Assembly (NCBI GenBank): GCA_902787955.1
Contig: CADAIJ010000010.1
Span: 1,942 to 65,941 of the forward strand
Direction: 5' to 3'
DNA length: 64,000 nt
From: an uncultured Erysipelotrichaceae bacterium
Lineage (GTDB): Bacteria > Bacillota_I > Bacilli_A > RFN20 > CAG-826
Of the stretch, positions 186-29,675 are shown one piece after another. The position numbers and the translations under genes were made by a program. The notes under the pieces are model-generated. The model was not told the DNA's origin. It ran no database searches and saw only the letters and a list, made by a program, of their open reading frames with translations. The first letter of the stretch is position 1. Each line of letters opens with the position of its first letter.

Positions 186-262
186 TAACGGCAAACCCGG
201 AGTAATCCGGCGACGCAAAGCTAGAGGGTCCTTATTAATTAAGGGCAGCCAGTTGCACTATA
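186..262 (+). promoter_or_regulatory. c-di-GMP-I (GEMM) riboswitch aptamer
   Basis: Read as RNA: ACGGCAAACC-CGGAGUAAUCCGG-CGACGCAAAGCUAGAGGGUCC...GGGCAGCCAGUUGCAC. All GEMM-I hallmarks in canonical order: GCAAAnCC, a GNRA (GUAA) hairpin, GACGCAAAGC, a GGG/CCC helix, and GCAGCCAGUUGC. Confidence 0.85.
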
Positions 263-292
263 TATTCATCCTTTATATAGTTCTTCTTTCAC

Positions 293-325
293 TCAGTATT
301 GCTTTGCGTAATACTGATTTTTTTT
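293..325 (+). terminator. intrinsic terminator forming the riboswitch expression platform
   Basis: 8-bp stem UCAGUAUU/AAUACUGA with loop GCUUUGCGU, followed by 8 U. The loop is the exact reverse complement of the aptamer's conserved ACGCAAAGC (213-221). Confidence 0.7.
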
Positions 326-338
326 ACCCTAAAAACAC

Positions 339-2319: not shown

Positions 2320-5300
2320 TTACGCAAAAGTTGTTCCAGTTAAGGTATGTCCACTACTGAAGGTAACTATACTTCCATTCCATCCTGTAACTGTTCCTAA
2401 AAACATTGCTGAGCCATCAGGATTTGTGGTCCAGAATGGAATGTCACCATTAATAACGGTATAAGGAGCAGAAGCAGAAATAATTAAACTATTTGTGCTT
2501 AAATCAGTAACATTATCTACGAAATAGTGAATAGTTTCGAGATTACTGCCATTCTTTCTCCATTTCTCAGTGCTAGTGGTAGAAGAAGTAAATTCACCAT
2601 GATAATAAATAACTAACGAAGTGTCACAACCACTGATAATAGAGTTAGCACCATTCTTAATGTTAAACTTAGATGTAAGTTGTAATTCGGTTAAGCTGGT
2701 GCAATTATTAAATAAACTTTGATTGTGGCTTGGGAATAATGCATCGGTTTTAATGAATCTTACAGAAGCTAAACTTGCACTATTTTGGAAAGCTCCTTCG
2801 CCTAATGTAATTGAGGTTGTTGTCACAATAACTCTTGTAAGTCCACTATTATTAAAAGCGTTTTTGCTAACGTTAATACTCTTATTTGCATTGGCAACAG
2901 GATCTTTAAATGTCATTTCACCGGTTGATGTAATGCTTCCAGTATTTTGGAAAGAACCTTCACCGAAATCACGAAGTTCTGGGAACTTAGAAAAATCAAA
3001 ATTCGCTAGACTTGTACAACCTTTAAATGAAGCAGAGTTAGCTTTTTGAAGACTACAGTCACCACCATTTTGAGTTGTAACATTTACTAAACTTGTGCAG
3101 CCTTCAAACATTGAAGATGAAAAGCTAGTAAGGCCTTCAGGAATAGTAGCATTTACTAAAGAGGTGCAGTTTTGGAAACAATAGTTTCCTGGATTAACAG
3201 TAACTATAGAAGGATCATTATCTGGCCAAATGATAGTTGTTACACCAGTGTTTTTAAATGCACTGACATTTATGTTAATTGTGCCTGTAACATTACTTAA
3301 GTCGATTGTGGTTAAATTAGTGCAGTTTTCAAAAGCATTATCTTTAATTGTAAACGTAGAAACATCAGGAGCAATAAATGTCTGAATAGAAGCATTATTC
3401 TTAAATGACTCTTTACCAACATAAGAATATCCGGTACCTCTTAAGTCAAGAACATGGGCTTCACTACCTCGTGGCGCTGGAGAAGTTTTGTAATTTGTAT
3501 CCGCTAAAGTGACATCTTTAAATACACCATCAGGGATACCGTTACCAGTATCATTGTTTAACTCAACTGTAAGTAAATTCTCACACCCTGCAGTAGCATA
3601 TCTAGGCATTTTAGTAACAAGGCCTGCAATAGTGTCTAGATCACACATTAAGTTAGGATAATAATAACCTTCCGTGCCTAAATATAAATATTTAACAGTT
3701 AACTCATTGCCTTTAGAACCTCTTGTTCCAATTCCAGAGAATAATGGCTGAGCAAAGACATTAGAAGAACTATCAAGAGTAGGATTTCCTAAAACTAATT
3801 CTTTAATCCAATATCCCATCTTATACGCTCCAAAAAGGAATGGATTAGTTCTATATTGACCATTAAATCTAATGCCATTTGTATCATCGGATAAAGCTGC
3901 ATCGAGAGCAGTTTGTTTGAAATCTGCCTTAGTTCTATTTAAAACCATTAAAAGTCTATCTTTGTTATAGGAATAATCAGTTCCATTAGCGTCTTTTGAA
4001 TAAATAGAACCAGTATATGTTGGAGTTCCACTAGTTTTAGAAGTGTAAGTAATCGCCTTATAGTAAGCTGATTCATTTCCTTCGGTCGAATTATCACTTC
4101 CTAAAAATGTGATTTGTCTTAAGGAAACAGCATTAGCAAAAACACAAGCTTCTTTATATGTTTGAGTGTAATTTTCATAGAAAACGCATTCATATGGGAT
4201 TTTAAGAATCTTCTTAAGTCCTGAAAAAGCAAACGCCATTTTGCCTATTTTCTCTAAGCTTGAAGGCATACCTTCTGTAGGAGTATTGTTTCCAGTATAT
4301 GATTTAATAGTGGTAACACCATAAGCTCTCATAAAAGCATAATCGCCAATAGTTTCTATAGCGTTAGGTAGCACGACAGTTGTTAAATCATCAAAAGTAC
4401 CCGGATTTTTCTTTGGACTAGTATCTTGTCCATCACAGAAACACGCTGAGAAAGCATTATTACCAATGTGTTTAACTGTGTATTCTTCCCCATTTCTATC
4501 AGTAACAGTTTCAGGAACTGTGCAAGTTGTTAAATCAGCGGAACCATCATGAAGGTTATATAGATAGTTAGTCATTGTGGCGATATTAGAAGCATTAACA
4601 GTTTCACAAACAAAAGAGCATTTATCTTGTTCAACGTATTCTTTTGTGTTTGAACTACCAAGATTAACAGTGGTTATTACCGTTTCGGCTTCTATAACTT
4701 GTTTATAATAATGAATTTGATCATATATTTCTAATTCTTGGTTAATTCCAAAAGAATTAAGTTCACCATTATTATCTAAAGTGTATGTATCTGTTCTTTT
4801 ATTCGTAAAGCAATAACCAATTCTTGCTGGATTATATTTAGCAGAATAATAGTCTTCTGAGCCAATTGTTTTCCATTCTTTAGCTTGAGAAATTGGAGAA
4901 GCTAAGAAGTCTAAATTTTTCCAGTGACCACATCTACTATCAGAATAGAAATGTGAGCCAGCCTCATCAGGCATTAATCCAGTTAAATAGATTGCTGCTC
5001 TTGAGTTAGCATGGAATGCAAGGTTTTGAATATATAAATCAGTGTATTGATTTGGGAGAACTAAAGTTTGTAAGAATGGCTCGCCACGGAAATCATTACT
5101 ACCAGCACCGGAGTTACTACCAATTGATTCTTGGGCAGAACTTTGGTCCCCTACACCACCATTTGTACCAACTTGGGTATGAAAAACAATCTTATGTCCA
5201 GCCCGTTCTTCAAAAATAATGGTTTGAAGCGATTCGTTAAAAACGAAAGTCTGTAATGGAATAATTAAATCTGTAGTTTCTCCTGAATTCATGCTGCCCT

Positions 5301-7095
5301 TAAATATGACTGTTCCAAATAAAGAACAACCAAGGAAGGCGTGAGCAGGTCTAGTTGCCTTCGTAGAACGTTCAGCAGGAATAACACTAAAATGGAATGG
5401 GTTAGAAGGAAGAGAATTAAATCTAGTTACATCAGTATCAAGCAAACCAAAGTATTTAAATGTTTTAGGGAAAATAATAGTAGAAGCAGTGTGCGGCCTA
5501 TAAGTTTCATTTTTTGCTAAGGTGCCACCTGTAGTACAACCAAGTCCATAAAAAGCATCAGCACCAATACACTCTAAGCGAGAATTAGCATCACTATATC
5601 CCCAACTAAATGTTGTTACATTTGGAAGCGATCTTTTACTCGCTCCAAAAACACCAAAAGCTTCATCACCGATAGCGCGAATCTTGGCAGGAAGACGAAG
5701 AGTGTCTATTCTTTGAGTTGTGACACTTGGTTCATTAAACGCAAATGCTCTAATGCCAATAAACTCTAAATCTGTAATGCCACTTAAATCAATTCGAGCA
5801 GGAATATCATTTAAAGTAGGATATACACTAGTATCGCTATCACCGGCACAAGCCTTATTATCATCAATAACAAAAATGTTTGAGTAATTATATCTAAACA
5901 TTAAATTTTCAATTGAAAGTAATGTTGTTGGTAAATATAGTCTTCTAATTTTACCTTTTGTGGTTGTACTAAAAGCATTAGGGTCGATACGAATAACTTT
6001 ATTGCCTTCAGGAGCCGCCATGGTATCAGGAATAGAAATAAGCCAACCATGTGCTTCATCTGGATCTGGGCCGGTATATTCAGTTAAAGTAACCTCCCCA
6101 TTTTCATTACATTGATAAACCCAATCAGAAGTGAAATAACTATCACCAGTTTCTTGTCGGTAGGCGTAGCAGTTTGTAGGATCGTCAGGATCTCCTAAAT
6201 CATTTTTCCAACCCCACTTTTTATGTTTGTTTACCCAAGTAGTAACAGCGCTTTCCTCTCCGCAGAAACGAATATCTAAGTCAGCGTGACAGTAGTTAAA
6301 AGCGTGAGGTTCTATACCAATATTATTTCCATCATTATCGAATAATGTTTTAGAAACATAGACCTTTCTTAAGCCAATACAGCCTTGGAACGCTCTTTCA
6401 CGAACAATTCTAATACTTTGGAAGAAGATGGTTGATGTTAAAGCAGAGCAACCGTTAAAAGCTTCTTCCCCTACTTCTTGAATAGAACCAGGAAGAGAAA
6501 GTTCTCTAAGGGCAGTACACTTAAAGAAACACATTGTTGGTATTTTTTGCAAAGTTGTAAAGGTAGCGGATTCGCTTTCACCACTATCATCGCAGTTACA
6601 AGTAATCGAACTACCTGTACTAGCAGCGGTACTGTTTTTAAAGTTAGCAACAGCTAAACTTGAACAAGCATAAAAAGCACAATCGCCAATTTGTTGAAGG
6701 GAAACTGGAAGAGTGATACTTGTAATGGAACTATGTAAGAAGGCTTCAAAGTCAATGGTCTTAATACCTTCGTGTAAATTGATAGTTGTAGCAGGAGTAT
6801 TATGGAAAGCATTATGCCAGATTCCAGTAACAGGGATTTCATCATAAGCAGTTGGAACATTAATTGTGCCAGTTAAGGAAGTTTTAACACTATCTTTTAA
6901 AGATACATATAGTTCATTACCACCTTTTTTCTTATAGTAATCATAGTTACCGTTAGTAGCATAAAATGTTCCATCTAATAAATAGTGTGGCTTAATTTTA
7001 GGTGTATCTTCTCCATTAATGTTACATGAAACAGGAACAACAAAAACAAAAGAGAGCACGATTGCTTTAAGAATATTTCTAATTACATTTTTCAT
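2320..7095 (-). CDS. giant cell-surface protein with BspA-type (TpLRR/LRR_5) leucine-rich repeats; likely lipoprotein or signal peptide
   Basis: Many repeats of the IG..AF..C..L..I.IP pattern (IGDCAFYACSSL, VGEEAFNGCSAL, IRERAFQGCIGL, IGNNAFSAC, IGDYAFMRAYGV, IGKMAFAFSGL). Start chosen at ATG 7095 (MKNVIRNILKAIVLSFVFVVPVSC...), preceded by AAGGAG 9 nt upstream; the ORF-track start at 7113 overlaps that SD. Confidence 0.6.
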   Translation of the reverse strand: MKNVIRNILKAIVLSFVFVVPVSCNINGEDTPKIKPHYLLDGTFYATNGNYDYYKKKGGNELYVSLKDSVKTSLTGTINVPTAYDEIPVTGIWHNAFHNTPATTINLHEGIKTIDFEAFLHSSITSITLPVSLQQIGDCAFYACSSLAVANFKNSTAASTGSSITCNCDDSGESESATFTTLQKIPTMCFFKCTALRELSLPGSIQEVGEEAFNGCSALTSTIFFQSIRIVRERAFQGCIGLRKVYVSKTLFDNDGNNIGIEPHAFNYCHADLDIRFCGEESAVTTWVNKHKKWGWKNDLGDPDDPTNCYAYRQETGDSYFTSDWVYQCNENGEVTLTEYTGPDPDEAHGWLISIPDTMAAPEGNKVIRIDPNAFSTTTKGKIRRLYLPTTLLSIENLMFRYNYSNIFVIDDNKACAGDSDTSVYPTLNDIPARIDLSGITDLEFIGIRAFAFNEPSVTTQRIDTLRLPAKIRAIGDEAFGVFGASKRSLPNVTTFSWGYSDANSRLECIGADAFYGLGCTTGGTLAKNETYRPHTASTIIFPKTFKYFGLLDTDVTRFNSLPSNPFHFSVIPAERSTKATRPAHAFLGCSLFGTVIFKGSMNSGETTDLIIPLQTFVFNESLQTIIFEERAGHKIVFHTQVGTNGGVGDQSSAQESIGSNSGAGSNDFRGEPFLQTLVLPNQYTDLYIQNLAFHANSRAAIYLTGLMPDEAGSHFYSDSRCGHWKNLDFLASPISQAKEWKTIGSEDYYSAKYNPARIGYCFTNKRTDTYTLDNNGELNSFGINQELEIYDQIHYYKQVIEAETVITTVNLGSSNTKEYVEQDKCSFVCETVNASNIATMTNYLYNLHDGSADLTTCTVPETVTDRNGEEYTVKHIGNNAFSACFCDGQDTSPKKNPGTFDDLTTVVLPNAIETIGDYAFMRAYGVTTIKSYTGNNTPTEGMPSSLEKIGKMAFAFSGLKKILKIPYECVFYENYTQTYKEACVFANAVSLRQITFLGSDNSTEGNESAYYKAITYTSKTSGTPTYTGSIYSKDANGTDYSYNKDRLLMVLNRTKADFKQTALDAALSDDTNGIRFNGQYRTNPFLFGAYKMGYWIKELVLGNPTLDSSSNVFAQPLFSGIGTRGSKGNELTVKYLYLGTEGYYYPNLMCDLDTIAGLVTKMPRYATAGCENLLTVELNNDTGNGIPDGVFKDVTLADTNYKTSPAPRGSEAHVLDLRGTGYSYVGKESFKNNASIQTFIAPDVSTFTIKDNAFENCTNLTTIDLSNVTGTININVSAFKNTGVTTIIWPDNDPSIVTVNPGNYCFQNCTSLVNATIPEGLTSFSSSMFEGCTSLVNVTTQNGGDCSLQKANSASFKGCTSLANFDFSKFPELRDFGEGSFQNTGSITSTGEMTFKDPVANANKSINVSKNAFNNSGLTRVIVTTTSITLGEGAFQNSASLASVRFIKTDALFPSHNQSLFNNCTSLTELQLTSKFNIKNGANSIISGCDTSLVIYYHGEFTSSTTSTEKWRKNGSNLETIHYFVDNVTDLSTNSLIISASAPYTVINGDIPFWTTNPDGSAMFLGTVTGWNGSIVTFSSGHTLTGTTFA

Positions 7096-7160
7096 TGTTC
7101 TTACTCCTTCCATCTAATCTATCAATATTTAAATATTATTTTTCCTTAATTATTTAATAA

Positions 7161-10100
7161 TTATGGCGTTTCAGGCGCAGGATAAACAATTGGGGTTGTT
7201 GTCACGCCATCACCACTAAATAAGACAACAGTTGTGTTATAAATATCCGTTAAGGCATGGTTAATCGCATAGTTAGATACAGCGACATGTTCCATCGCCC
7301 CTAACGTGTCCGTTGTTATCTTAAATTTATTGTCTAAAGGATCAAAATAGAACCTTATATTACTTGTTGCATCAGTGAATAAAGAACGGTCTCTATTCGC
7401 TAATAAAACATATATTCTCTTACATTCAATATAATTGGTGGCTGGATCATAGCGAGGAGCGTCATCCATAGTAATGTTTGTCGTGGTTACATGAGTTTCT
7501 GGATTATAGGTATAACGTTCCACTCTTGTAAAGTCATAGTTTTTAACTTCATCAGCACTAGCGAAAATGTTAGAGGAGAAGTCAAGTTGACCATCAGTTT
7601 GACCTTGAGCACAAACGTAATAAATTTTAGCCGTGCCTTCTAAACCACCATCGCGATGTGTTCCAGTAGCAGAACCTAAACAATATCGGCCACGTGGAAG
7701 CTTAAAGGTGTGAGCATATAATCTTGTTGTTGGGTGTTCTTTATCATAACCATATTCAGTAACTTGTGAATAAGAAGTACCAACTGCGTCATCAGAAGCA
7801 TAAGTATTTGGAACGGTTGCGTCAGTATGCACATCTGCTTCTGACCAAGTACCATTTTTATCATAAGTTCCAATACGACCTTTACCTAATCCATCTACTA
7901 CATAGTCAAAATAAGCAAGATGATCATCAACTGGCATAAAGAATGCATAATCAGGACTTTCAAATGGCTTTTTGTAGTATTTATTACCGTCAACTGTTCC
8001 AGTTTCAGCGTTATCCAAACGATATACACCTAACGCGGCTGGTTTACTTCTATCCGCTAAACCGGCAACAACAGTAACGTTAGCAAGAGGTGTTTTAATT
8101 TCAAAGTTAACCATGTTAGAAGCAGGATCATCATAAGTAGCGTTTGAAACTGCAATCATTTTTGGTCTTGAAGCTTCAGATGCATTTGATAGATAAGAAT
8201 AATCAGGTGTAGCAAAACTAGATTCTAGTTTTCTAATTTCACGTCCTAAACTATCACGAAGCATAATACCACTTCGTTTACTATTAGCAGATGCTAGAAT
8301 CTTGTAGCCGTTTTGGTCTACAAGTTTATTTTCGAAATATTTAGAAAGGAATGAACCACCAACTGTAGTTTTATCAATATCAGAGAAATAGAACCCTTTA
8401 CCAGCGCGGTAATTATGATCGATTTGGAAACGGAAGAAGTAGTTTTGATAACGATCACGTTCTTCAAAGCTTTCTGATGTCATTTCATCAACACCAGGTA
8501 AATGGTAACCAAGGTGGAATGTACTTGGATTATTTGTATTAAATGAATCGCGGTATTTATCAAAAGTAATTCCTTTAGTGCTATCGTATTCACCAGTTGC
8601 ATAATAAACATAATATTTACTATTAACAGCGGTATTTTCTTTTAAAACAGTGGAAACATTTAAACCGTTAGTAGCGTCATCATACATACCAGTTCCATAA
8701 TAGTCAGTAGCGATTGTAAAAATACCTAAGTCAGTATTCGAAATAACTTTTTGACGGTTAAAGGAGACTGTATTCGCTTGTTGAGTAATATATTTGCCGG
8801 ATGAATTAACTCTTAAGAATCTTTTATATTTTTCCGAAGTTGATGGAACATAAGTTACACCATCTTCAAAAGGGGTAGAACCGCTAAAGGAGGTTGGAGT
8901 AATAACATCATCATAAACAGTTGAAAAGTCAAGAACACCGATGGATTTACCAATATCAGTCGCACCATCAGTTTCGTTAGCGTTAACATTATGAACAGTG
9001 CCACCAATCATACCAATAAGACCGGTATTTGAACCATTCGGCAAGGTGTAATATGTATTACCAGTAACAGCATTACCATTATTCATCTTAAATTCACCAT
9101 TATTGACATAACAGTGATCCAAAGAACCATCGCAGTGGCCAATAACAAAACCAATATTGTTAGTGTGTTCACCACCTAAAATAACATTTAATGTTAATAC
9201 TCCTGAATCAGCTTCAGGTAAAGAAATATCAAAGTCTAAGGAAGCAATAACTTTGGAGTGGTCTAAACCATAGTTATCGGTTGTAGAAGCAATTAAAGAA
9301 ACAGAAGATGAAGCGTTAAGTGGATAATCATCAGCTTCCAAATCAGCCTTTTGTTCTTTAAAGAATTGATAGATAGTTGGTAAATCAAGTCTTACTTCGT
9401 TTTCACCGTTTTCCGTTAGGAAGTCACCTGAAATTAACATTTTATATTTGTAGTTTGAGTTAGTAGATGTAAAGCCAATAACCGGATAATCTTCTGGTAT
9501 TGCAGGAGCGTCACCTTCACCATCCCACGCAAAATAGGCCGAAGCATCAAAATATAATTCTTTTACTTTTTCAGTATCTGATTTAGTAAATGTATCTTCA
9601 TCTTCACCACATTCATAGGTAAAAGCTGTACCTACCGCGGCAACTTGGGAATTGCCATATAAATCAGCGTAACTAGAGGTATAACCAAGCGCGTTAATTG
9701 TGATGTTACTTAAAAATAAATCATGAACAATTGAACCATGCGCTGTATAACCAAATAACCCAGCGTCTTCAGGGTCTGCAAAGACTTCAAGGTTTTTGAT
9801 TTCAAGTCCTTGACCATCAAATTCGCCATAGAATGGAACAGCTTCTGAACCGATTGCGTTAATAGGTTCATAAGTATAGGTGGATGATGTCATATCAAGG
9901 AATGGAACTGTTTCTGAAGTTGAGTCATTTAAATAACAAAGTGGTTTCCCGCTATCATCACCAGCTAAGCCAACTAAACCCAATTGGAAGAAAGTAGGTT
10001 CGTTAAAGACACCTAAACCTTGTAAACGAGAAAGGTTATACATGTGTCTTGGTCGAGTAATAACGTATGGATCCCCTGGATCATCAATGCCATTTGTGCC

Positions 10101-10304
10101 TTTTGGTCTACCTGTTCCACGTTCAAAGTATGAACGGAGAGCAACTTGACCATAAAAACCTTCACGTTCCGCGTCTTTTTCAAAAATAGCAATCGCAAAA
10201 GGTGCTACTAAAGCAAGTAAAGAAGTAGCAATTGAAGCGACGAAAGTGATTATAAAAGCTTTTGATTTAAGTAATTCAGTTTTTCTTTTATTCATTTTCG
10301 TCAC
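7161..10304 (-). CDS. large secreted or surface protein, hypothetical (N-terminal signal anchor with an A-x-A-x-F motif)
   Basis: 1047 aa. Basic n-region, long hydrophobic segment ...LVAPFAIAIFEKD. No recognisable enzymatic motifs. Translationally coupled to the upstream gene by a 17-nt overlap. Confidence 0.5.
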   Translation of the reverse strand: MTKMNKRKTELLKSKAFIITFVASIATSLLALVAPFAIAIFEKDAEREGFYGQVALRSYFERGTGRPKGTNGIDDPGDPYVITRPRHMYNLSRLQGLGVFNEPTFFQLGLVGLAGDDSGKPLCYLNDSTSETVPFLDMTSSTYTYEPINAIGSEAVPFYGEFDGQGLEIKNLEVFADPEDAGLFGYTAHGSIVHDLFLSNITINALGYTSSYADLYGNSQVAAVGTAFTYECGEDEDTFTKSDTEKVKELYFDASAYFAWDGEGDAPAIPEDYPVIGFTSTNSNYKYKMLISGDFLTENGENEVRLDLPTIYQFFKEQKADLEADDYPLNASSSVSLIASTTDNYGLDHSKVIASLDFDISLPEADSGVLTLNVILGGEHTNNIGFVIGHCDGSLDHCYVNNGEFKMNNGNAVTGNTYYTLPNGSNTGLIGMIGGTVHNVNANETDGATDIGKSIGVLDFSTVYDDVITPTSFSGSTPFEDGVTYVPSTSEKYKRFLRVNSSGKYITQQANTVSFNRQKVISNTDLGIFTIATDYYGTGMYDDATNGLNVSTVLKENTAVNSKYYVYYATGEYDSTKGITFDKYRDSFNTNNPSTFHLGYHLPGVDEMTSESFEERDRYQNYFFRFQIDHNYRAGKGFYFSDIDKTTVGGSFLSKYFENKLVDQNGYKILASANSKRSGIMLRDSLGREIRKLESSFATPDYSYLSNASEASRPKMIAVSNATYDDPASNMVNFEIKTPLANVTVVAGLADRSKPAALGVYRLDNAETGTVDGNKYYKKPFESPDYAFFMPVDDHLAYFDYVVDGLGKGRIGTYDKNGTWSEADVHTDATVPNTYASDDAVGTSYSQVTEYGYDKEHPTTRLYAHTFKLPRGRYCLGSATGTHRDGGLEGTAKIYYVCAQGQTDGQLDFSSNIFASADEVKNYDFTRVERYTYNPETHVTTTNITMDDAPRYDPATNYIECKRIYVLLANRDRSLFTDATSNIRFYFDPLDNKFKITTDTLGAMEHVAVSNYAINHALTDIYNTTVVLFSGDGVTTTPIVYPAPETP

Positions 10305-11832
10305 CTCCTTCTTTATAGATTGGAGATGGAGATGGTTCTAATCTTTGAGTTGCGGTAAAGTAGAAACCAAAATCACGGTCAAGATAATATGTTTTGCCTA
10401 AACGTTCTTGGTTAACGAAGAAATTTGTATAAGCGTAATCATAATCAATAGCGATATAGATATGGTATGTGCTTTCTTCAAGTGAACCAGGAATAATTGT
10501 AGAGTCTGACATTGTTTTACCTTTGACATTCATTTGGATTTCACGGTCAAAGGTAGTGTTATTTTGATATTTTTGATAGATATATTGAGCGTCTTCTTGT
10601 TGGTCAGTTTTTAAAGCATGGAAAGCTTCCCAAGCGAAAGTAGGCGATGCATATTTATTCTCTTCCTTAGCAATTACGGAATAGAAAGTATAGAAATCAC
10701 TAGCGTTTAATGGATTACGATGTTCATCATCTTGATAGCCACGATATGTATAAGCATCAGTTGTGTTATATTTTCCAGTAAAGCTATAAATAGATTGAGC
10801 AGAAACTCCTTCACGCATAATTTTTAAACCCGCATCAATATCGATTTTGTTTTGATATTTAACTTCAACATCTAAAACCACCATTGTGTTTTGTTCTTGG
10901 ATAGCGGTTGAAAGATAATCGGTAATTTCTGGGTATTCTTCTTTATCAACAGAACCGCGATAATCAATTGAAATCTTGGTTGGATCGATGAGGTTTGAAC
11001 CGATAATTGCGTTATCACCTCTAGCGGTTAAATTGATATCTAAGAACTTATCTCCAGAAGAATTGATGCGATATCTTATGGTATAAATGCCGCTTTCTAA
11101 ACATTTGATACGATTATTATCTATAATAGCAAAACGAGAATTCTTACTTGTTTCTGGAACTGGTGTCCCATAAGTAAAGTAAGAGCAAGTTGTGTTTAAA
11201 TTATTAACAGTTCTAACATCGAAAAGGATAAATTCAGAACCTTGTGATAAAACGACATTTTTAACAATCGCGGTTTGATCATCAGTTGGATCATCAGTCG
11301 CTACAGGAATATCACGTCTAGAAAATGCGGTAGCGGTTAATGTTGACCAAGGATTATTAGTAACTCCATTAAAAGTACTATTTCCGATGAGATAATATTT
11401 AAAGTCTTGCGATCTTTCAAAACTAATATTTGTTGAGGTTTTTTCTCCACCACCGTTACATGTTTGCCCTTCAAGTACAGTGAGAGGAATGGTAACTGTA
11501 TCGCTTAAGTTTTCAGGAATTTCAATTGAAGAATCCTTAACAACATAACTTTTAACAACACCGTCTCCTTCATAATCAATAAAGTCAGCGGAGTTATTGT
11601 AATATGGGTAAACATATTTATAGGCTGAGACTTTGTTAATGTTGATATCTAAGTCTCCAGAGAATGTGTTGATTGATGATTTTGTATTAGCGTTTGCCAC
11701 AAACCAGGCAAAAGTAATGGAGGATAAAGCGAAAAGATTTCCAATCGTTAGAGCGGCCAAAGCAGCAATCACTCTATTTTTCTTGGAACTAAGTAACTTT
11801 TCTTTTAGTAACTTAATCTTACTTTCCTTCAT
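10288..11832 (-). CDS. SipW-cognate secreted protein, TasA/camelysin-like
   Basis: N-terminus KKNRVIAALAALTIGNLFALSSITFAWFVANAN resembles the TasA GGGTWAAFND / camelysin GGGTFAYFSD class. C-terminus FGFYFTATQ matches the TasA C-terminal ..LQFSFEATQW strand. Confidence 0.55.
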   Translation of the reverse strand: MKESKIKLLKEKLLSSKKNRVIAALAALTIGNLFALSSITFAWFVANANTKSSINTFSGDLDININKVSAYKYVYPYYNNSADFIDYEGDGVVKSYVVKDSSIEIPENLSDTVTIPLTVLEGQTCNGGGEKTSTNISFERSQDFKYYLIGNSTFNGVTNNPWSTLTATAFSRRDIPVATDDPTDDQTAIVKNVVLSQGSEFILFDVRTVNNLNTTCSYFTYGTPVPETSKNSRFAIIDNNRIKCLESGIYTIRYRINSSGDKFLDINLTARGDNAIIGSNLIDPTKISIDYRGSVDKEEYPEITDYLSTAIQEQNTMVVLDVEVKYQNKIDIDAGLKIMREGVSAQSIYSFTGKYNTTDAYTYRGYQDDEHRNPLNASDFYTFYSVIAKEENKYASPTFAWEAFHALKTDQQEDAQYIYQKYQNNTTFDREIQMNVKGKTMSDSTIIPGSLEESTYHIYIAIDYDYAYTNFFVNQERLGKTYYLDRDFGFYFTATQRLEPSPSPIYKEGGDENE

Positions 11833-11837
11833 AATTC

Positions 11838-12716
11838 TTACGCTAATTCGAAATCTAATTTATCGAAGAATAACCTTTCGTAACAGTTGCTATTTCCGTA
11901 ATCATCTTGTGTATAGTAGCCAGTTTCCTCATCATAGCTATAGTGAGTGCTCACATCGTTAGAGAATTCTAAAGTGAAATAGATAATTACACGGTGACCG
12001 CTTTCCTTTTCTGGCATATCACCGCTTTCGATAATATCAATCACAGGTTTTGAAGAAGTTGGAGCAAGCGATTCTTCGGAATATTCAAATACATCTTCTA
12101 AAGTATCGTCGGCATAATATGTTCTAAAACCAGTTGCAACATCATTAGCGATTGCTTCGTTAGTATCTCCGGTGCTTGTCACACTGTAGGCGGCACCATA
12201 AATATCAATAGCCCAAGATAATCTAACAAATTGACTAACGCTTGTTTTAGCGGCGTCATCCGCTTCATGTCCTTCATTTTCACCCCAATCAGAAATGGAG
12301 AATTTTTCAACTTCACTAGATGTAATAACAACAGCAAATGTTAATTTATGAGCAGGCCATAAATGAGTAATATTAGTTGGGTTTGGATCATTTATAACAT
12401 GACCATCAGAATAATTTATTTTAGTAAATGTGGCGTCTTCGTAAGCAACTTCATAACCAGAGAAGCTTTCAATAGTAGGATTATAATTGCCTAATTTAGT
12501 ATTTCCTTCTCCATCATCAAATTCGCTTAAATAATAAAGGTCAAAGCCAATAGCTTCTGGGCCAACAACAGTAAAATTACCGGCGGTCGTATTAAACATA
12601 TTTAATGACTCAAACCAGGCAAAAGTCGCACTAAAAGTGGTCGCTAGTGTGAAAATAGTGATTAATGTAGCGATTGCAATCCTAACTTTAGGTTTTTTGA
12701 AGAAGTCACTTGCCAT
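11838..12716 (-). CDS. SipW-cognate secreted protein, TasA/camelysin-like
   Basis: Start at ATG 12716 (MASDFFKKPKVRIAIATLITIFTLATTFSATFAWFESLN). The longer ORF-track N-terminus is just translated riboswitch sequence. C-terminal IIYFTLEFSN motif. Confidence 0.55.
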   Translation of the reverse strand: MASDFFKKPKVRIAIATLITIFTLATTFSATFAWFESLNMFNTTAGNFTVVGPEAIGFDLYYLSEFDDGEGNTKLGNYNPTIESFSGYEVAYEDATFTKINYSDGHVINDPNPTNITHLWPAHKLTFAVVITSSEVEKFSISDWGENEGHEADDAAKTSVSQFVRLSWAIDIYGAAYSVTSTGDTNEAIANDVATGFRTYYADDTLEDVFEYSEESLAPTSSKPVIDIIESGDMPEKESGHRVIIYFTLEFSNDVSTHYSYDEETGYYTQDDYGNSNCYERLFFDKLDFELA

Positions 12717-12744
12717 TAAATAAAAATCCCAGTCACCTATAGTT

Positions 12745-12812
12745 GGCAACTGGCTGTCTTCTCTTATAAAGACCCTATAGCTTTGCGTCACCACATTACT
12801 GTGGTTTTGCTT
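12745..12812 (-). promoter_or_regulatory. c-di-GMP-I (GEMM) riboswitch aptamer
   Basis: Minus-strand RNA: GCAAAACC-ACAGUAAUGUGG-UGACGCAAAGCUAUAGGGUCUUUAUAAGAGAAGACAGCCAGUUGCC. Aligns element by element with the riboswitch at 186-262. Confidence 0.8.
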
Positions 12813-12819
12813 TTGTCTA

Positions 12820-12853
12820 TTTTTAGTTTTACTACTACAAAAAAAGAGTGTCA
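12820..12853 (-). promoter_or_regulatory. promoter TTGACA-N16-TAAAAC for the riboswitch-2 operon
   Basis: Perfect -35 TTGACA (rc of 12848-12853), weak -10. The transcript would begin a few nt upstream of the aptamer. Confidence 0.4.
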
Positions 12854-29543: not shown

Positions 29544-29606
29544 AATAAAAACCAGTTGCCTATCATCCAATCAATTGGCGGAATATTTCATCCTTTAAGG
29601 CAACTG
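29544..29606 (-). terminator. riboswitch-controlled terminator (alternative to aptamer P1)
   Basis: Minus RNA: CCAGUUGCC (the aptamer's conserved 3' element) pairs perfectly with downstream GGCAACUGG (9 bp), followed by UUUUUAUUU. Confidence 0.65.
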
Positions 29607-29668
29607 GCTATCTTTTTCAAGACCCTATAGCTTTGCGACCCCATATCTCTATGAGTGTGCTTTTATCT
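29598..29668 (-). promoter_or_regulatory. c-di-GMP-I (GEMM) riboswitch aptamer
   Basis: Minus RNA: AAAAGCACACU-CAUAGAGAUAUG-GGGUCGCAAAGCUAUAGGGUCUUGAAAAAGAUAGCCAGUUGCCUU. GNRA (GAGA) hairpin, UCGCAAAGC, GGGUC...GAU, GCCAGUUGCC. The first element is a variant (GCACAC instead of GCAAACC). Confidence 0.75.
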
Positions 29669-29675
29669 CGCTTAC

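Follow-up and report, generated by a model that had tools for sequence, protein, structure and literature searches.

A candidate OFF-type c-di-GMP-I riboswitch, with a terminator loop complementary to the aptamer core, upstream of a membrane-anchored diguanylate cyclase gene

The locus described here lies at the start of a 64-kb stretch of DNA (64,000 nucleotides, analysed as a whole and referred to below as the window) and carries a c-di-GMP-I aptamer, a separate intrinsic terminator and a gene for a diguanylate cyclase. The features of the locus are given below in their order along the DNA.

153-182, + strand: promoter, with the -35 element TTTACT at 153-158, an 18-nt spacer and the -10 element TATAAT at 177-182
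180-260, + strand: c-di-GMP-I (GEMM-I) aptamer, Rfam RF01051
213-226, + strand: proposed switching strand ACGCAAAGCUAGAG, holding C214, G215, C216, A217, the base of P3 (219-222) and GAG (224-226)
257-281, + strand: AU-rich hairpin ACUAUAUA/UAUAUAGU (257-264/274-281), directly 3' of the aptamer and predicted in all folds
292-309, + strand: 3' half of the predicted antiterminator, with CUC 292-294 facing GAG 224-226 and GCUUUGCGU 301-309 facing ACGCAAAGC 213-221
293-317 and 318-325, + strand: intrinsic terminator TCAGTATTGCTTTGCGTAATACTGA followed by U8, from a terminator scan, with the stem 293-300/310-317
339-1814, + strand: diguanylate cyclase gene encoding a membrane-anchored product of 491 amino acids, from the open reading frame and its Pfam GGDEF match

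The product of the open reading frame at 339-1814 carries a C-terminal GGDEF domain (Pfam PF00990, 100.7 bits) with an intact GG(D/E)EF motif, reading RVGGDEF, and the segment INDDYGHDSGD, whose asparagine and aspartate are taken to be the guanine-specifying residues equivalent to N335 and D344 of PleD. The RxxD inhibitory site (I-site) lies five residues before GGDEF in many members of the family, if not in all. At that position, which was assigned by assuming correspondence with PleD, the cyclase of the window has FAHS (FAHSPVFRVGGDEF) and no RxxD, and the consensus over 16 orthologous cyclases is FxHSPVYRVGGDEF, in which FxHS replaces RxxD. Full-length relatives of the cyclase are numerous in uncultured gut and rumen Bacilli. 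The gene had been described as lying 75 nt downstream of the aptamer; Rfam and the open reading frame agree on the order of the two elements and place the ATG after a gap of 78 nt.

Searches with the Rfam covariance models returned three c-di-GMP-I aptamers in the window, and the one upstream of the cyclase gene (#1), called a textbook GEMM-I aptamer in the preliminary description, matched RF01051 over the whole model (positions 1-87 of 87) with 59.1 bits, above the gathering score of 35, and an E-value of 5e-9. Pairs read from the cmscan alignment give a P2 hairpin at 191-216 with a GUAA loop at 202-205 and a P3 hairpin at 219-254. P2 is closed by G215-C192 and C216-G191, and the first pairs of P3 are A219-U254, G220·U253 and C221-G252. 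The ligand-contacting residues could be mapped onto known structures: G190, an unpaired G before the GC/GC closing pairs that aligns to model position 11, is the equivalent of G20 in Vc2, and A217 that of A47, the adenine that intercalates between the bases of the ligand. The distance of 27 nt from G190 to A217 equals the spacing in Vc2 (G20/A47), Vc1 (G12/A39) and Bc1 (G11/A38). C214 corresponds to the interhelical C44 of Vc2 and stands 3 nt 5' of A217, as C36 of Vc1 does relative to A39. For the equivalent of C92, which pairs with the second guanine of the ligand, the alignment offers C256 and C258 within UUGCAC as candidates.

The promoter abuts the aptamer. It was the top promoter-like site within positions 1-2500, with 10 of 12 positions matched, and the -10 hexamer ends exactly 7 nt 5' of the G20 equivalent in 13 of 15 orthologous leaders, in nine of those 13 as a perfect TATAAT, while a match of at least 5/6 to the -10 element at that position was found in none of 84 unrelated leaders sharing the aptamer core. 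From this arrangement the transcript most likely begins at 188-190, at the first conserved G of the aptamer, and with the -10 box only 7 nt before G190 the transcript probably lacks a 5' strand of P1. A possible P1 helix of AUAGU (181-185) with ACUAU (257-261) was considered and rejected: its 5' strand would fall on the -10 box and the nucleotides that follow, the complementarity is missing in two orthologous leaders (L087 and L096), and its 3' strand is taken up by the conserved hairpin 257-281. That hairpin is present in 6 of 10 aligned orthologues, is 100 % paired in those and has three compensatory pairs; we speculate that it serves as a spacer, or as a stand-in that stacks at the usual place of P1.

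The stand-alone terminator was recovered by the terminator scan as previously described, with an 8-bp stem, a 9-nt loop and the U8 tract TTTTTTTT at 318-325. Its hairpin energy is -10.8 to -11.6 kcal/mol, and the pairs C302-G308 and G301·U309 may lengthen the stem to 10 bp with a 5-nt loop. Inspection also bore out the observation from which this analysis set out, namely that the loop GCUUUGCGU (301-309; GCTTTGCGT as DNA) is the exact reverse complement of the aptamer segment ACGCAAAGC at 213-221. Counting both strands, GCTTTGCGT occurs three times in the window against 0.21 expected (per 128 kb): twice as the reverse strand of an aptamer core (#1 and #2) and once in the terminator loop at 301-309. 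It is unlikely that a 9-nt complement of this kind between loop and aptamer is accidental. As 213-221 holds C214, the closing pairs of P2, A217 and the start of P3, the ligand and the terminator loop would compete for identical nucleotides. A second candidate, pairing of CGGAGUAAU in the P2 hairpin (199-207) with AUUGCUUUG (298-306), was rejected; it includes three G·U pairs, needs the GC-rich P2 to be melted and never appeared in minimum-energy folds. For the loop GCUUUGCGU, an example of a replacement that keeps the stem and destroys the complementarity is GCAAAGCGU.

The 9-bp antiterminator helix and the eight core pairs of the terminator (293-300/310-317) share no base, and fully paired loops of 6-7 nt occur in antisense-RNA and kissing complexes. 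Both points favour a different reading, in which the loop makes a kissing contact with the junction beside an intact terminator, leaves termination unhindered and may tune aptamer folding or the off-rate of the ligand, or in which the leader of about 135 nt, once terminated, acts through its loop in trans on other GEMM-I leaders. In the window leader, though, the pairing of GAG with CUC takes the foot of the terminator 5' arm, and in four orthologous leaders (L087, L089, L091 and L093) the complement reaches 3-7 nt into that arm, so that the stem could not stay intact; the trans variant further has the difficulty that its targets would be locked by ligand exactly when terminated RNA accumulates. 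A kissing contact or a leader acting in trans is accordingly judged very unlikely. Pseudoknot connecting loops have minimum-length requirements. If both helices were present, the result would be an H-type pseudoknot whose connecting loops have zero length, presumably too tight for a 9-bp stem, and this steric reasoning, the competition between GAG/CUC and the terminator, and the reach of the complement into the 5' arm in the same four leaders are the grounds on which the two helices are taken to exclude each other.

Folding was computed with ViennaRNA, which considers nested structures only and has no ligand term; a loop-strand kissing complex of 6-7 bp with an intact stem is outside the reach of such an energy model. 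A plain minimum-energy fold of 170-330 did not reproduce the aptamer and took in sequence that probably lies outside the transcript; it was not used for the mechanism. For the RNA 188-325, the structure with the aptamer, the 257-281 hairpin and the terminator has -36.1 kcal/mol and the antiterminator fold -34.7 to -34.9 kcal/mol, so that the leader is predicted to fold as a bistable switch with near-isoenergetic end states. Which of the two forms is preferred depends on the 3' end. Without ligand, transcripts with 3' ends 308-316 have the antiterminator as their minimum-energy structure, with a probability of 0.95-0.98 at 3' ends 309-315 and of 0.81 at 316, and the terminator fold is preferred only from 3' end 317 on, by 1-2 kcal/mol. 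The direct-path barrier from the apo aptamer to the antiterminator is 4.8 kcal/mol and that from the antiterminator to the terminator 15.1 kcal/mol. With so high a barrier an antiterminator, once formed, should persist over the time scale of transcription, as in the Clostridioides difficile riboswitch Cd1; since the ligand-free terminator fold is slightly more stable at full length, read-through would depend on kinetics. The preliminary description had proposed that, without ligand, the aptamer segment invades the terminator loop and acts as an antiterminator. The pairing of 213-221 with 301-309 does form in the minimum-energy structures at 3' ends 308-316; invasion of the loop alone does not describe it, as GAG 224-226 additionally pairs with CUC 292-294, and AGUAUU (295-300) stays in an internal loop.

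Orthologous leaders were compared for 13 loci whose cyclases share 31-94 % protein identity with that of the window (L081 94 %, L082 68 %, L086 66 %, L083 64 %, L084/85 64 %, L096 62 %, L087/88 61 %, L089/90 61 %, L001 61 %, L091/92 57 %, L093-95 55 %, L002 43 % and L012 31 %). Genome contigs were scanned with generic GGDEF peptide patterns, and among the matches listed the true orthologues with a leader were L001, L002 and L012; the closer orthologous leaders were retrieved protein by protein. A c-di-GMP-I match directly upstream of the cyclase gene (48.9-63.9 bits) and a stand-alone terminator were present in 13 of 13. Conservation of the loop complementarity in orthologous leaders had been named at the outset as a test of the proposed switch, and 10 of the 13 keep a terminator apex that is complementary to the junction strand. 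The loop GCUUUGCGU is unchanged in the window, L081, L082, L083 and L096 while the stem varies (U293-A317 becomes C-G in L082, and U300-A310 becomes U·G in L083 and L096). L084 and L086 share the loop GCUUUGUGU, which turns G215-C307 into G·U and keeps the pairing, and in the stem of L084 U300-A310 is replaced by C-G. In four more leaders the register is shifted, and the same aptamer strand faces other complements, 7-12 nt long: in L087, UUGCGUC (the complement of GACGCAA) overlaps CUUUGC (the complement of GCAAAG); in L089, GGCUUUGC extends from the upper end of the 5' arm into the loop; in L091, CCUAUAGC faces the adjacent GCUAUAGG of the same strand; and in L093, UCUAGCUUUGCG is a 12-nt complement of CGCAAAGCUAGA. 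When the orthologues were cut at the end of the terminator loop, a pairing of 9-14 bp between aptamer and terminator was the minimum-energy structure in every one; it was centred on the junction strand in 10 of 13 and was still the minimum-energy structure at full length in seven.

In the alignment of 10 sequences both sides change at five of the eight terminator stem pairs, and the antiterminator helix is 88.9 % paired with three changes from G-C to G·U. Because ligand binding keeps the aptamer strand invariant, the latter helix shows one-sided changes only and no double-sided covariation. That such covariation is unobtainable for the antiterminator helix leaves room for another reading, in which the leader works as an OFF switch by something other than the loop complementarity: the loop would be kept by descent or for another reason, such as a protein or nuclease site, and antitermination would use another pairing, or attenuation at the terminator would be constitutive for the most part, as has been reported for Bc1 of B. 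thuringiensis, which looked locked OFF whatever the c-di-GMP (PMC11218506). A complement of at least 7 nt to the core strand is indeed missing in L001, L002 and L012; weak complements occur in L001 and L002, and the distant L012 is the only leader in which the 3' tail of the aptamer, GUUGCACC, pairs with GGUGCAAC, as in the usual OFF design. Against this stand the facts that terminator loops usually drift, whereas here the loop is fixed and the stem covaries, that the changes seen in the loop (L084, L086, L087, L089, L091 and L093) stay G·U-compatible or are complements in a shifted register, and that the window leader has no further complement of at least 6 nt between the aptamer and the rest of the platform. 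An OFF switch of which the loop complementarity is no part is therefore considered unlikely.

How often such complements arise was gauged in a control set. From 120 stretches returned by a metagenome scan for the aptamer-core pattern GGYGACGCAAAGCTANAGGG, 129 distinct leaders were extracted, orthologues included, and each leader was scored by the longest run in its best stand-alone terminator-like hairpin that is Watson-Crick complementary to the 19-nt core strand. Among 63 distinct unrelated hairpins this run was 3-5 nt in 59, 6 nt in one and at least 7 nt in three; among 13 distinct orthologue hairpins it was at least 7 nt in eight, and with G·U allowed nine reached at least 8 nt. In two of the three unrelated exceptions, L109 and L188, the complement lies directly 5' of the U-run. 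In these leaders, in L115 and in their relatives the junction strand is likewise the switching sequence, with a U-run directly after the complement of ACGCAAAGC(UA); the long-range helix itself would there be the terminator, which predicts an ON switch, whereas the window leader carries the complement at the apex of a separate hairpin, as part of a predicted antiterminator. That the junction strand is paired as a terminator arm in L109, L115 and L188 fits its being accessible without ligand. L135 was considered as a further example and set aside, as it belongs to another platform family and has no cyclase gene downstream.

The other two aptamers of the window, riboswitches #2 and #3, matched the c-di-GMP-I model with 66 and 54.9 bits, and in both the 5' arm of the terminator, CCAGUUGCC, lies inside the aptamer, which is the ON-type arrangement. 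In #2 the terminator is CCAGTTGCCAACTATAGGTGACTGG followed by a U-run, with its 5' arm within the aptamer; in #3 the aptamer segment CCAGUUGCC pairs with GGCAACUGG, which is followed by UUUUUAUUU. The terminator of #1 (293-325) shares no nucleotide with its aptamer, which ends by 260, so that an aptamer stabilised by ligand leaves the terminator free. This difference in architecture is in keeping with the earlier proposal that #1 has the opposite polarity to #2 and #3. That #1 is instead an ON switch, in which c-di-GMP would favour read-through, or an element insensitive to the ligand has nothing specific in its favour and is considered here since the polarity is deduced and the aptamer probably has no P1 helix. 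The lack of overlap between terminator and aptamer argues against it, as do the different look of the ON architecture in the same genome (#2, #3) and the fact that the sole strong alternative partner of the terminator region is the aptamer strand that the ligand sequesters; we regard it as extremely improbable. Riboswitch #2 carries an identical ACGCAAAGC and #3 carries CGCAAAGC, which would suit an action in trans. In its specific form, in which the terminated leader (about 188-325) accumulates at high c-di-GMP as a small RNA and acts on nascent unliganded riboswitches, this idea is scarcely credible; if it were true, the terminator loop would offer its 9-nt complement to the best-conserved strand of all GEMM-I aptamers of the cell and couple the cyclase leader to the ON switches #2 and #3.

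The leader is thus best read as a c-di-GMP-responsive OFF switch that probably works by way of the antiterminator described above. The aptamer, the terminator, their conserved complementarity and the energetics were established by computation. We infer the ligand dependence, the polarity and the start site of the leader (188-325) from its sequence and predicted folds, and negative feedback of c-di-GMP on the gene for its own cyclase is what this model predicts. Transcription would start at about 188-190, right at the aptamer, without a 5' strand of P1. At low c-di-GMP the junction of the aptamer would be unlocked, and the strand 213-226, with A217, would be captured once 292-309 exits the polymerase. 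The antiterminator would consist of 9 bp between ACGCAAAGC and the apical GCUUUGCGU together with GAG paired to CUC at the foot of the 5' arm; it would form before the 3' arm of the terminator (310-317) exists, would be incompatible with the full terminator stem and would be kinetically trapped, and the polymerase would read through so that the cyclase is produced. At high c-di-GMP, bound ligand would clamp G190, A217 and the junction and make the strand 213-226 unavailable, the stand-alone terminator would fold, and transcription would stop in the U8 tract at 318-325.

To our knowledge, Cd1 is the only OFF-type class I platform that has been dissected. It is the c-di-GMP-I OFF riboswitch of the flgB leader of C. 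difficile, in which a transient antiterminator formed co-transcriptionally without ligand wrecks the binding pocket under kinetic control (PMC9262584). Like Cd1, the leader described here has a GEMM-I aptamer followed by a stand-alone terminator able to coexist with the ligand-bound aptamer, and its antiterminator is predicted, from nested folds, to consume nucleotides of the binding pocket, here A217. The strands involved are different. In Cd1 the 3' strand of P1 (G86 and C87, with C148 and G147) pairs with the 5' strand of the terminator (PMC9262584), whereas here the internal P2-P3 junction strand with the A47 equivalent would be captured by the apical loop and the foot of the terminator 5' arm, and no 5' strand of P1 would be transcribed from the predicted start. 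The probable lack of a 5' strand of P1 may explain why an internal strand would do the switching and not the 3' strand of P1 as in Cd1. ON-type GEMM-I riboswitches (Weinberg 2007, PMC1950547; #2 and #3 of the window; Bc2) have the same class of aptamer and also act through intrinsic termination, but their terminator 5' arm is the aptamer's own CCAGUUGCC and the ligand blocks termination, whereas the terminator of #1 is separate and its predicted polarity reversed. Of 322 GEMM instances, 78 had a terminator that overlaps the 3' hairpin (PMC1950547).

The class of aptamer, the OFF logic and the type of gene regulated are all already known. OFF-type class I switches include Cd1 (PMC9262584), Vc2 and Bc1 (PMC11218506), and the original description of the class already noted GEMM RNAs in front of some genes for cyclases and phosphodiesterases (PMC1950547). 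It has been stated that c-di-GMP riboswitches rarely control genes of c-di-GMP metabolism (PMC6366702), and searches of the literature for experimental work on a class I riboswitch that controls a cyclase gene yielded general statements and papers on biosensors only. What is new relative to Cd1 is the aptamer that abuts its promoter, the junction strand bearing the A47 equivalent as the proposed switch and the apical part of the terminator as its partner; it is not a new principle. Inhibition at a PleD-type RxxD I-site and the VpsR-CdgC feedback of Vibrio cholerae (10.1101/2024.09.01.610008) share the logic that c-di-GMP limits its own level, whereas in the present family, which has FAHS or xxHS in place of RxxD, the sensor would be an RNA and the target the synthesis of the cyclase mRNA.

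With a length of about 135 nt the leader is compact, and together with its natural variants it offers a testbed for the competition between ligand binding at the junction and strand capture; it could also serve directly as a template for small OFF-type biosensors of c-di-GMP. Should the predicted polarity hold, the window carries ON as well as OFF switches that respond to a single messenger, and these would make up a simple circuit of homeostasis and output. With this conserved leader, a family of cyclases of little-studied gut and rumen Bacilli that is without the usual I-site would gain an RNA-based product feedback on the synthesis of c-di-GMP.

In 13 of the 15 leaders of cyclase orthologues, exactly 7 nt separate the end of a -10 hexamer from the first conserved G of the c-di-GMP-I (GEMM-I) aptamer downstream; no such hexamer was found at this position in any of 84 other GEMM-I leaders that share the core. 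From the position of this motif, the cyclase-leader RNA would begin at the ligand-binding junction, without the 5' strand of P1, the helix that closes the junction. The 3' end of the aptamer in riboswitch #1, which precedes the GGDEF cyclase gene of the window, is directly abutted by an AU-rich hairpin, which is kept with three compensatory pairs in six of ten orthologues, is weak or absent in the remainder, and may serve as a spacer or as a stand-in for P1.

Features adjoining the aptamer of riboswitch #1
177-190, -10 region to first aptamer G (motif position; same position in L081-L096 and L012)
257-281, AU-rich hairpin (GC|ACU...AGU)

A second pairing with the terminator can be drawn from the P2 hairpin, in which CGGAGUAAU (199-207) pairs with AUUGCUUUG (298-306) over nine positions, three of them G.U, and a pairing of this type is also possible in the orthologue leaders L081, L083, L086 and L096. 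This pairing is probably irrelevant, because P2 must melt for it to form. No Shine-Dalgarno-like sequence is present between the U-tract and the ATG of the window cyclase (326-341, ACCCUAAAAACACAUG); one is present in several orthologues, for example AAAGGGGCUAUG in L082 and AAGGGGGACAAAAACAAUG in L012.

A different GEMM-I platform family was represented by eight metagenome leaders (L100, L108, L109, L115, L119, L135, L188 and L213), in which a complement of the P2-P3 junction strand (UAGCUUUGUGU or GCUUUGCGG) is directly followed by a U-run and GTTGACAAGG and runs of CAGAG repeats lie downstream. Complement and U-run would make up the 3' side of a long-range terminator, the 5' arm being ACGCAAAGC. 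Tandem GEMM-I aptamers also occurred in the metagenome sample, three in L141 (121-386) and two each in L116, L145, L168, L196 and L215. Other structured RNAs were located downstream of cyclase orthologues by Rfam.

Structured RNAs downstream of cyclase orthologues
L082, 2050-2760 (-), three copies of cow-rumen-1 RNA
L083, 3733-4114 (+), two copies of cow-rumen-1 RNA
L096, 3219-3293 (+), c-di-GMP-I-GGC variant riboswitch RF03167 (59.3 bits, gathering score 59)

Riboswitch #2 is followed by an operon (2320-12716, (-)) that is convergent with the cyclase gene and whose last gene encodes a BspA-type leucine-rich-repeat protein of 1597 aa (LRR_5, 202 bits). Apart from a weak AAA_5 match, the remaining scanned genes under #2 and #3 gave no Pfam hit. 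In the Rfam alignment, the equivalent of Vc2 G20 (model position 11) is G190 in #1, whereas it is A in #2 and #3.

The ON-type c-di-GMP-I riboswitches of the window
12742-12821 (-), riboswitch #2, A at the Vc2 G20-equivalent
29596-29671 (-), riboswitch #3, A at the Vc2 G20-equivalent

An A is also found here in 18 of 84 unrelated leaders of the metagenome sample. Since the GEMM-Ib subclass, which senses cGAMP, is distinguished by just such an A, the ligand selectivity of the ON switches #2 and #3 may differ from that of #1.
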